Below are positions 6,870 to 52,883 of a DNA stretch of 64,000 bases, piece by piece; the stretch's first letter is position 1; the number at the start of each line of letters is the position of its first letter. Position numbers and translations under genes: made by a program. The stretch spans positions 576,001 through 640,000 of the forward strand of contig OZ245040.1 of assembly GCA_965224195.1 (NCBI GenBank), in the 5' to 3' direction. A model generated the notes under the pieces. It searched no databases. It saw only the letters and a program-made list of their open reading frames with translations, and had not been told where the DNA came from. Source of the stretch: Nitrosopumilus sp. (GTDB taxonomy: Archaea; Thermoproteota; Nitrososphaeria; Nitrososphaerales; Nitrosopumilaceae).

Positions 6870-7472
6870 TTAGAAATGGTTCTCAAAAAATACATCATCT
6901 AAGGCTAATTGCCTACCACGTTGTGCTGCATCCTCTGCTCTTTTACCAACTACTACCATCATGACAATCATGTGGTCTTTTGGTAATTGGATAATTTTCG
7001 CTAATTCATCATACTCAAAACCTACCATCGGACAAGAATCAAGACCCATCTGACGTGCTGCAAGCATTATAGTTTGAGCTGCAAATCCGCAAGAGCGCAT
7101 TGCCTCATCGCGTCTGTTCTCAGGACTGTTCTCATATTTTCGAGCAAGAGCATTTTTCACCAGTTCTTGTTTTTCTAGAGTATTATTTCTCCAGTAACGT
7201 AATGGTTCTTCTTTCCATGCATTTAGATTTCCACAAAGAACAATTACCAAGGAACCATCTTTTGGTTGGGCCTGATCACGGGCAGCCTTTGAAATTTTAT
7301 CTTTTACCATCTGATCAGTGACATAGACGAATCTCCAGTTTTGTTGGTTGTAGCTTGTAGGTGATAGTATCGTCAACTCTTGATGTGCTTTAACATCTTC
7401 AGGTGACATTTTGTATGTGCTGTCAAATTTTTTTATTGCACGTCTAGTCTTTATGGCATCAAAGGTATCCAT
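6870..7472 (-). CDS. Nitroreductase family protein
   Basis: AIKTRRAIKKF, SPTSYNQQNWRF and MLAARQMGLDSCPMVGF motifs; start set at ATG 7472 with TTAAAT about 26 nt upstream. Confidence 0.9.
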   Translation of the reverse strand: MDTFDAIKTRRAIKKFDSTYKMSPEDVKAHQELTILSPTSYNQQNWRFVYVTDQMVKDKISKAARDQAQPKDGSLVIVLCGNLNAWKEEPLRYWRNNTLEKQELVKNALARKYENSPENRRDEAMRSCGFAAQTIMLAARQMGLDSCPMVGFEYDELAKIIQLPKDHMIVMMVVVGKRAEDAAQRGRQLALDDVFFENHF

Positions 7473-7508
7473 AGAATAACGGGAAAAAATTCCCAAATTT
7501 AATTGAAT

Positions 7509-7652
7509 GAAAAGGTAACTGAGCTTAAGATCAGTACCTAAACAGCACTGATGACAGCTCACCACTTTAGATCAGTAACTAGAGTTATCTGATGAAAGCG
7601 ACTTGTCTTAAGATCTGAAACCATTGTACTCAGACGAGAGACTCACCTTTTC
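7509..7652 (-). ncRNA. Candidate structured ncRNA: closing stem plus three homologous hairpins
   Basis: GAAAAGGUGA/UUACCUUUUC terminal stem; three hairpins share an RUCWG/CWGAU helix and a UC/CU(U)A internal loop; plus-strand A-C mismatches become G-U pairs on the minus strand; TTAAATAA box at 7681-7674. Confidence 0.7.
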
Positions 7653-7673
7653 TGAATATACTATGTGATTTTG

Positions 7674-7681
7674 TTATTTAA
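7674..7681 (-). promoter_or_regulatory. TATA-like box upstream of the candidate ncRNA
   Basis: TTAAATAA on the minus strand, ending about 21 nt before the 5' end of the terminal stem. Confidence 0.5.
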
Positions 7682-7768
7682 CCCGCACTATCTTTTCCTA
7701 CTATTGAGAATTTATACGAACAAATTCAGATAGTCTATTTATTACACCTCAAATTCATTGAAATCATC

Positions 7769-8782
7769 TTGAAGATAGCAGTAATGGGAATGGGAGTAGC
7801 AGGCTCTTATCTTATGGCCAGATTAAAGGACACAGAACATGAAGTTGTCGGATATGAAAGAATGGTTGAAGAAAGACATGATTCCATTTGTGCATGGGGG
7901 ACAATAAAATCAGAATTAGCAGGATTTTGTAAAAAAACTGGAAGAGATTTTAATGATTTTCTAATTCATGATGGTAAAAAAATGCATGTCAGAATGAGCA
8001 ATGATGTCAAATTCGACATCGGACTCAAAGGATTATGTACATATAACAAATTAGGATTAATCAAAGATTTCATCAAAGATTGTAATGTAATTTACGGTAA
8101 AGCACCAAAGTTAGAAGAATTAGAAAAAGAGTATGACATGATAGTTGATTGTACAGGATTTCACAGAGTATACTTGCCAAAATTAAAAGAAGATTTCTTT
8201 TTGCCAACATATGAGTACAAAGTAGAATATCCAGACAAGGTTCCATATGATGACTTTTACATTGAACCATTTCCTGGAATGTCAGGTTACTTTTGGTATT
8301 TCCCACTAGGTGAAAAATGGGCACATATTGGAGCTGGAGATTACAATAAACAACACATGAAAGCAACAAATGACTTTTTAAAAAAACATGGAGGTAAAGT
8401 TCTTCAAACAAAGGGACGCCCAATTAGATTGGCAACACCTGACAGATGCAAGCCGTATTATTCAGGGAAAGTAGTCGGAGTTGGAGAATCAATTGGAACT
8501 GTTTATGCATTGTTAGGTGAAGGAATTATTCCATCAATGGAATGTGTTGAGATATTTTTAGAAAACATGCAGGATTTCAAAGCGTATGAGAAAGCAGTAG
8601 AAAAACATTACAAAGTATATGCCAAAGTGTTTAATTTCGTACATGCAAAGATTCAGAAAAATTTTAGTTTCCTCAAAGCATTACCAGATTTTATTGCAAT
8701 ATTCCTTTACATGAAAAAGCATGAAGACAGATTTGGAATGAATATCAAAATTGCAGATTTGATGAAAGTTGCAAAAGCTTAA
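7769..8782 (+). CDS. FAD-dependent oxidoreductase, geranylgeranyl reductase-like
   Basis: GMGVAG Rossmann motif, CAWG, GYFWYFP, and VGESIG..YALLGEGI. Confidence 0.8.
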   Translation: MKIAVMGMGVAGSYLMARLKDTEHEVVGYERMVEERHDSICAWGTIKSELAGFCKKTGRDFNDFLIHDGKKMHVRMSNDVKFDIGLKGLCTYNKLGLIKDFIKDCNVIYGKAPKLEELEKEYDMIVDCTGFHRVYLPKLKEDFFLPTYEYKVEYPDKVPYDDFYIEPFPGMSGYFWYFPLGEKWAHIGAGDYNKQHMKATNDFLKKHGGKVLQTKGRPIRLATPDRCKPYYSGKVVGVGESIGTVYALLGEGIIPSMECVEIFLENMQDFKAYEKAVEKHYKVYAKVFNFVHAKIQKNFSFLKALPDFIAIFLYMKKHEDRFGMNIKIADLMKVAKA

Positions 8783-9884: not shown

Positions 9885-9972
9885 AGCCCGATAGTCTAGT
9901 GGTCAAGGATTCTGCCCTCTGGATCTCAAGAGTGGATAGGCGGGGACGGCAGTTCGAATCTGCCTCGGGCTA
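9885..9972 (+). tRNA. tRNA-Gln(CTG) with a 15-nt intron at the canonical 37/38 position (about 9923-9937)
   Basis: Acceptor AGCCCGA/TCGGGCT; anticodon stem CTGCC/GGCGG; loop CT-CTG-G[ATCTCAAGAGTGGAT]A; T arm GGCAG-TTCGAAT-CTGCC. Confidence 0.9.
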
Positions 9973-52798: not shown

Positions 52799-52883
52799 TG
52801 CGGACGATGGGATTTGAACCCACGAACTCCTGAGAGACTAGCCCCTCAAGCTAGCGCCTTTGGCCAGGCTGGGCGACGTCCGC
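52799..52883 (-). tRNA. tRNA-Leu(GAG); CCA encoded at 52798-52796
   Basis: Acceptor GCGGACG/CGTCCGC; CTAGC-TTGAGGG-GCTAG anticodon arm; long variable arm; GTGGG-TTCAAAT-CCCAT. Confidence 0.95.

Follow-up and report, generated by a model that had tools for sequence, protein, structure and literature searches.

Positions 7509–7652 of a 64,000-nt stretch of Nitrosopumilus sp. DNA (contig OZ245040.1, positions 576,001 to 640,000; the whole stretch is referred to here as the window) very probably carry, on the minus strand, a real and conserved gene for a structured RNA, in which a closing stem (P1) and three hairpins (H1, H2, and H3) are arranged around a four-way junction. The three arms of this junction are copies of one hairpin module, and the one-, two-, and three-hairpin RNAs of the Nitrosopumilaceae, the family of the window genome, are one family built from that module. 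The RNA family is apparently undescribed; what is new is the module with its one- and two-copy paralogues, the common promoter element, and the near all-or-none distribution among genera.

Fold, strand, and conservation of the RNA

The minimum-free-energy fold of the minus strand of 7509–7652 consists of P1 (7643–7652 paired with 7509–7518, 10 bp) together with H1, H2, and H3, and reproduces exactly the 10-bp closing stem enclosing three hairpins that an initial annotation of the window had drawn. Its energy of −51.8 kcal/mol is lower than that of every one of 200 dinucleotide shuffles, which average −31.9 ± 3.58 kcal/mol (z −5.56), whereas the plus strand reaches −39.1 kcal/mol (z −3.27) and is equaled by 3 of 200 shuffles. 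The pair list holds seven G–U pairs, a number that the annotation had estimated correctly and that on the opposite strand would show as A–C mismatches, and at many positions covariation runs through G–U intermediates in both of the model-fitted alignments described below. At the locus a covariance model scores 164.2 bits for the minus strand against 16.4 bits for the plus strand, which settles the minus strand as the RNA strand. These differences between the strands in model score and folding energy indicate, as the annotation had concluded from the G–U pairs, that the RNA of the minus strand, and not a DNA palindrome, is what selection acts on. Two further details can be read directly in the sequence, namely the common internal loop of H1, H2, and H3 (NUC opposite CUUA, with CUAA in H2) and the U–A pair of H1 where H2 and H3 have A–U. 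The 144-nt element is single-copy in its own genome as judged by BLAST.

BLAST of the 144 nt against 60 relatives returned full or near-full-length matches, at 74–90% identity, for 15 congeneric genomes, as well as weaker partial matches in four further genomes and 41–42-nt pieces at two places in one incomplete genome; among these relatives no match outside the genus was better than an expectation value (E) of 0.0186. A MAFFT alignment was made of 20 sequences, leaving out the locus of genome G001, which keeps only H1 and a degenerate remainder. RNAalifold predicts the three hairpins from this alignment, with 14 of 37 predicted pairs compensatory, that is, changed on both sides. The closing stem is misaligned by MAFFT, and there are length differences of 1–2 nt in that region. 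Single-sequence folding places a closing helix around three hairpins in 19 of the 20 sequences, the exception being that of G009.

A covariance model seeded with six close sequences was then used to align all 20. In the resulting alignment 94.8% of cells pair, compared with 88.2% when partners are shuffled, 21 of 49 pairs change on both sides (six of ten in the closing stem), and none of 500 shuffles reaches any of the five measures; when the 3′ partners are slid by 1–3 columns, pairing falls to only 33–42%. A second set was obtained from 80 named loci retrieved via the neighboring GGR-like protein, of which 49 contain the RNA according to the model, always on the opposite strand and 120–280 nt upstream of the GGR-like gene. 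Here 93.4% of cells pair, a value that 0 of 500 shuffles match, and changes on both sides are found in 33 of 49 pairs, including nine of the ten in P1. Over both sets the slid controls leave 32–43% of cells paired, against 93–95% in register. The upper-stem pairs of H3 change on both sides in both model-fitted alignments, and covariation supports every helix, the closing stem included. The structure proposed in the annotation is thus conserved in relatives, as seen in the compensatory pairs of all three alignments.

The hairpin module, its paralogues, and their promoters

The module has the consensus 5′ (stem)U-NUC-RYC ... GRY-CUUA-A(stem) 3′. Its near-fixed part comprises the 3-nt/4-nt internal loop NUC/CUUA and the pairs that close it, U–A below and R–Y, Y–R, and C–G above, while the stems covary freely. 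A scan by pattern plus pairing of a set of collected loci yielded 103 module instances; the region enclosed by the loop measures 23 or 24 nt in 78 of them, and the 3 + 4 nt size of the internal loop in all 103 is partly imposed by the scan pattern. In an alignment of 42 modules, U4, C10, G28, U32, and A35 are invariant without being fixed outright by the selection filter, whose pairing rules nevertheless constrain some of them, and U6, C7, C31, U33, and A34 are invariant partly by construction. Eight of the ten stem pairs in this alignment change on both sides.

A search of the window genome with a 38-nt module model (R3) identifies seven modules in five loci, namely the triple RNA and C1:53841, C1:182639, C1:270311, and C1:1588430, the last four being single hairpins of about 60–70 nt; the next match, antisense inside a coding region, has an E of 0.66, which is at chance level. 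Weak matches to the full-length model (24–32 bits) are single hairpins that have the same internal loop and the apical top of H1, UAC-N4-GUUU. The lower stems of the single hairpins, 10–16 bp long, differ between loci, and U-runs follow them. The annotation had described a stand-alone RNA displaying three copies of one motif; the three copies are borne out, but the RNA does not stand alone, since the family has one- and two-module members. A two-module RNA is found in genome G108 of genus g45 (L055, 1431–1600), where two near-identical tandem modules lie within a closing helix GUGUAU/AUACAC and a non-module segment occupies the place where H1 would be.

Among 150 genomes of the family, the full-length model gives strong full-length matches (E ≤ 4.3e-12) in 19 besides the window genome, spanning the five genera g1, g25, g36, g42, and g48; G108 adds the two-module version and G107 a weaker match. 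The module model at E ≤ 1e-4 has matches in 66 of the 150, nearly all-or-none by genus. The module is present in g1 (8/9), g24 (7/7), g25 (7/7), g36 (9/9), g38 (8/9), g41 (9/9), g42 (2/2), g43 (9/9), g48 (2/2), g31 (1/1), and g44 (1/1), rare in g27 (1/10), g32 (1/9), and g45 (1/9), and without a match in the searched genomes of g23 (0/5), g26 (0/4), g30 (0/5), g34 (0/5), g35 (0/5), g37 (0/3), g39 (0/9), g46 (0/5), g47 (0/9), and smaller groups. An order-wide sample, searched at E ≤ 0.001, gave module matches in 14 of 23 Nitrosopumilaceae genomes and in none of the 127 taken from 19 other families. The module was found only within the Nitrosopumilaceae, and there in only part of the genera. Neither the triple RNA nor the module was matched in any search of genome G018, which belongs to the same genus as the window genome and is a single contig that is 99% complete; it represents a natural loss within the genus. 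Among the record titles of the loci retrieved via the GGR-like protein, Nitrosopumilus, Nitrosopumilaceae, Nitrosopelagicus, and marine group I predominate, and the loci titled Nitrosopelagicus are mostly among the 31 that have no RNA at the GGR-like place. One locus of different title, L112 (NZ_LFTY01000001.1, a 1.04-Mb scaffold titled 'Candidatus Rhodobacter oscarellae'), encodes a GGR-like protein with 87% identity and contains a partial RNA scoring 70.8 bits; the scaffold looks like mislabeled or contaminating archaeal sequence.

The triple RNA would be transcribed from 7652 to about 7509, starting at the first base of P1 and ending in the U-run of P1, as suggested by the sequence elements at its two ends. 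These elements were surveyed in the GGR-adjacent copies after removal of the three weakest, which left 46 of 49. Of these, 42 have a TATA-like heptamer that ends 20–26 nt upstream of the first closing-stem base, 44 have a run of at least four U at the 3′ end or directly behind it, and 40 have, directly ahead of the TATA-like box, a box similar to GTAGRA-N5-YAGTR. In the window the spacing is about 22 nt, so that the annotation was right to place an upstream TATA-like box at the expected distance; it was also right that the downstream nitroreductase gene has a box of its own, given that ATTAAATTT, about 27 nt before the nitroreductase ATG, is conserved in relatives with the spacing expected for a leaderless mRNA.

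The combined pattern GTAGRA-N5-YAGTR-N5-TAAATA occurs in the 2.07-Mb window genome four times without a mismatch, a count that stays at four when one mismatch is allowed and rises to five with two, the expectation for exact copies from base composition being 0.013. All four exact copies are located 22–25 nt ahead of a module RNA and cover four of the five module loci. The pattern was written from three loci; the fourth copy, C1:270263, is independent of it and led to a module variant that the first scan had missed. A like box was read by eye at single-hairpin loci of two other genera (L057 and L058 in g36, L072 in g48). The fifth locus, C1:1588428, and its orthologues in several genera have another conserved upstream near-palindrome, GTCAAT...ATTGAAC, and the single-hairpin loci of genus g41 have yet another upstream sequence.

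Candidate functions

The explanation that best accounts for these results is that a structured small RNA of about 144 nt is encoded by a gene of its own and that its fixed loop docks a trans-acting factor, most likely a protein; taken whole, this statement has in our estimate an even chance of being correct. The four RNAs behind the common promoter pattern would form one regulon, whose factor would bind the upstream box, and the fixed loop would be the docking site of the trans-acting partner. The triple RNA may then be the multivalent member, either a sponge that titrates the partner or the RNA scaffold of a ribonucleoprotein. A protein is favored as the partner because the fixed part takes in both loop strands together with three pairs above and one below, because the distance from loop to apex is held within 1–2 nt, and because valency varies between paralogues. 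A more specific version, which we regard as conceivable but doubtful, is that a transcription factor bound to GTAGRA-N5-YAGTR switches on RNAs with one to three modules and that their NUC/CUUA loop captures a protein limited to the module-bearing genera of the family. If true, this would be a functional counterpart, assembled from unrelated components, of the bacterial Gac–Rsm or Csr circuit, and it would operate in the main ammonia oxidizers of the ocean.

The comparison that this version calls up is with the protein-sequestering small RNAs of the Csr/Rsm type in bacteria (CsrB, RsmX/Y/Z), the rsm genes among which are preceded by a GacA box. The likeness lies in several paralogous small RNA loci per genome, in the variable copy number of a short motif carried on hairpins, and in a common upstream element, reminiscent of the GacA box, at four of the five module loci, and it is one of analogy, not homology. 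The Csr/Rsm RNAs may thus be regarded as the closest analogue in logic, with respect to paralogues, repeated motifs, and upstream element. The differences are that the motif of the module is the internal loop NUC/CUUA and not an apical GGA, its apical loops being variable, that the host is an archaeon, and that no mRNA copies of the motif were found at E ≤ 1. Y RNAs offer another comparison, being small hairpin RNAs with a long terminal stem that carries a conserved protein-binding irregularity, and they come near to the 60–70-nt single-hairpin members.

Several points weigh against a docking RNA of this kind. Transcription is read from promoter and U-run anatomy, and the common promoter element, on which the proposed regulon depends, covers most of the family and not all of it. 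The model-fitted alignments lean toward the fitted structure, and the 98.8% pairing in the 42-row module alignment is partly forced by the selection filter and is not evidence. The protein partners of the two analogues are missing: CsrA (PF02599) has no match in the window genome, which is 99.85% complete, the control being positive in 3 of 14 genomes, and the TROVE domain of Ro60 (PF05731) has no match there either, with controls positive in 2 of 14 genomes, so that membership in a Csr system or in a Y RNA/Ro60 system is excluded. The mRNA leaders of the window genome contain no full module at E ≤ 1 with R3, which favors a ribonucleoprotein or other role over a sponge, since a decoy would mimic sites in mRNAs; a ribonucleoprotein role appears at least as likely as titration. 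Finally, binding of a small ligand or a metal, or a tertiary contact, could account for the fixed loop equally well.

The last point leads to the alternative that fares best, although it is still improbable, namely that the RNAs are aptamers whose fixed loop senses a small molecule or metal ion, with the triple RNA binding cooperatively and no dedicated protein involved. The loop nucleotides are near-invariant while the stems covary, as in ligand pockets; the neighboring genes (nitroreductase, GGR-like flavoprotein, plastocyanin-like protein, ABC1 kinase) are loosely connected with redox or cofactor chemistry, a weak theme; and tandem aptamers and metal sensors with four-way junctions occur in bacteria. 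However, there is no expression platform, the RNA having its own U-run and the downstream gene its own TATA-like box. The gene downstream varies between loci, none of the Rfam riboswitch models gives a match, and a loop of 3 + 4 nt is small for a selective pocket.

Base-pairing regulation has poorer prospects. Several co-regulated paralogues sharing a repeated short motif do resemble the families of sibling small RNAs found in bacteria, and the CUUA(AG) loop or the apical loops might serve as seeds for mRNAs in an antisense manner. The conserved nucleotides are nevertheless located in a small internal loop between stable helices, where four unpaired bases are too short for a seed, and the apical loops are not conserved.

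A cis-acting leader, whether attenuator or riboswitch-like, that controls the nitroreductase gene is likewise highly improbable, even though the nitroreductase start follows the RNA on the same strand at a distance of 36 nt. The relevant evidence comes from a census of neighbors at 41 loci with the triple RNA (the two-module version in the case of L055), some of which are incomplete so that the counts are lower bounds. A nitroreductase gene lies downstream in at least 29 of the 41, which is the adjacency that a leader would explain, with protein identities of 50–58% or 72–92%, and the GGR-like gene lies divergently upstream in at least 33, at 69–92% identity. The constant neighbor is the GGR-like gene and not the nitroreductase gene. 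Nitroreductase is missing in 12 of the 41 loci, some of them in the same genus; where present, the enzymes in this slot fall into the two identity classes; a conserved TATA-like box at leaderless-mRNA distance intervenes between the RNA and the ATG; and paralogous module RNAs precede unrelated genes (DUF72, an unknown 127-aa protein) or none. The loci that display the two classes of nitroreductase in one slot are L012–L016, L036, L038, L040, L041, L043, L045, L048, L049, and L052, and the enzymes are seemingly different paralogues.

A DNA-level feature such as a palindromic operator array, or a mobile repeat (miniature inverted-repeat transposable element, MITE, or repetitive extragenic palindrome, REP), can practically be dismissed: the element does lie in a region of divergent promoters, its hairpins can each be read as imperfect palindromes in the DNA as well, and one single-hairpin locus is near a DDE transposase gene, but the seven G–U pairs, the strand asymmetry in energy and model score, and compensation via G–U all speak for RNA, and dispersal of the MITE/REP type, which the annotation had itself considered, is excluded by a single copy of the 144-nt element, seven modules in only five loci, and a position that is syntenic in relatives across several genera. 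Viral origin was rejected as well, there being no enrichment in viral contigs, where 32 pattern matches include only 3 weak model matches (20–23 bits) after pattern pre-selection. The aptamer, leader, base-pairing, and DNA-level or mobile explanations are all less likely than an RNA gene with a docking loop.

To our knowledge, few structured noncoding RNAs of unknown function have been described in archaea, and we know of none for the marine ammonia oxidizers, whose cells rank among the most numerous in the ocean. The family is tractable, with a sharply defined loop on free stems, versions with one, two, and three copies, and a promoter element at four of five loci, and the near all-or-none genus pattern together with the module-free G018 constitutes a ready phyletic profile for a partner protein and regulator. 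If the RNAs titrate or scaffold a protein, post-transcriptional, RNA-mediated control would be added to the biology of ammonia-oxidizing archaea.

Known RNA families and other features of the window

No Rfam 15 family matches the locus or the single-hairpin loci, in keeping with the view of the annotation that the RNA belongs to no known class: in 7300–7900 at E ≤ 10 nothing reaches a family cut-off, the four single-hairpin loci give chance-level matches only, and the whole window gives two tRNAs only. Archaeal guide RNAs, which are small, stable, and transcribed either independently or with other genes, resemble the module RNAs in size and in having fixed protein-binding elements beside variable parts, and H/ACA RNAs come with one, two, or three hairpins. 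In the module RNAs, however, the variable parts are base-paired and are thus not free guides. The RNA strand lacks the RUGAUGA and CUGA boxes of box C/D RNAs and the tandem G–A pairs of a K-turn; Rfam C/D-like matches overlap the RNA on the plus strand only, with 16.5–19.2 bits against cut-offs of 45–55, and a match to sR5 outside the RNA at 7725–7773 scores 13.1 bits against a cut-off of 40. With respect to H/ACA RNAs, a pseudouridylation pocket, with its two strands of about 5–9 nt, would need much more room than the 3 + 4 nt loop offers, and the hairpins are not followed by an ACA. Neither H/ACA nor Y RNA families of Rfam match the locus or the single-hairpin loci. Comparison of the internal loop with consensus motifs also led to rejection of its reading as a K-turn, box C/D, H/ACA, bulge-helix-bulge, hammerhead, tetraloop-receptor, or loop-E motif.

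Full-text literature searches turned up no description of such an RNA; the start-site tables of PMC5069720 and the cluster atlas of preprint 10.64898/2026.10.21.760802 could hold it. Transcription start sites of Thaumarchaeota are given in PMC5069720 in supplementary tables only and may bear on expression. A term search of the preprint gave no mention of these archaea.

The features of the locus are collected in Table 1.

Table 1. The three-hairpin RNA, its parts, and the adjoining promoters and genes; positions are those of the window.
Feature	Position	Strand	Description
Three-hairpin small RNA	7509..7652	minus	About 144 nt; P1 and H1, H2, H3 around a four-way junction; covariance models R1 / R2, 164.2 / 151.9 bits
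P1, 5′ strand	7643..7652	minus	GAAAAGGUGA; first base is the predicted transcription start
P1, 3′ strand	7509..7518	minus	UUACCUUUUC; U-run, probably also the archaeal oligo-U terminator
H1	7605..7642	minus	Module, loop CUC/CUUA; R3 46.9 bits, E 2.9e-10; apical top UAC-N4-GUUU common to single-hairpin paralogues
H2	7562..7601	minus	Module, loop UUC/CUAA here, GUC/CUUA in most relatives
H2, module match	7563-7600	minus	R3 35 bits, E 1.4e-6
H3	7520..7561	minus	Module, loop GUC/CUUA; variable, strongly covarying upper stem
H3, module match	7522-7559	minus	R3 44.8 bits, E 1.2e-9
Promoter of the RNA	7675..7701	minus	Upstream box GTAGGA-N5-TAGTG, N5, TATA-like TAAATA; genome pattern
TATA-like box of the RNA	7674-7681	minus	TTAAATAA; 3′ end about 22 nt before the first P1 base
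TATA-like box of the nitroreductase gene	7495..7504	minus	AATTAAATTT; outside the RNA, about 27 nt before the ATG (7472)
Nitroreductase-family gene	6870..7472	minus	PF00881, E 1.1e-29; neighbor, outside the RNA
GGR-like FAD oxidoreductase gene	7769..8782	plus	Divergent from the RNA; weak Pfam matches GGR_cat and Trp_halogenase

The open frame 6870–7565 is only a GTG-started extension of the nitroreductase gene, the Pfam domain beginning at residue 7 of the ATG-started protein. The neighbors of the single-hairpin RNAs are a DUF72 gene, a gene for an unknown 127-aa protein followed by an ABC1 kinase gene, a transposase region, and a gene for a plastocyanin-like protein with one for a conserved unknown protein of 126 aa. 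No convincing functional theme is common to the neighbors of the module loci, which range from nitroreductase to the transposase region, and the module RNAs behave as independent genes.

Two of the single-hairpin loci, both outside the window, have surroundings of their own interest. The RNA at C1:1588428–1588470 (L068 1327–1373, minus) is syntenic across several genera, and its locus has a divergent plastocyanin-like gene and a convergent gene for a conserved 126–136-aa protein of no known family. In L066, positions 917–1873 (C1:182216–183172) comprise about 950 nt in which no open frame reaches 50 aa and which surround one single-hairpin RNA; this stretch adjoins the DDE transposase gene and has an Rfam match to CRISPR-DR45 (25.8 bits, E 0.61) that is probably due to chance. 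The two tRNA genes of the window, at 9885–9972 (plus) and 52799–52883 (minus), measure 88 and 85 nt and thus exceed the standard length; they may carry a long variable arm or an intron.

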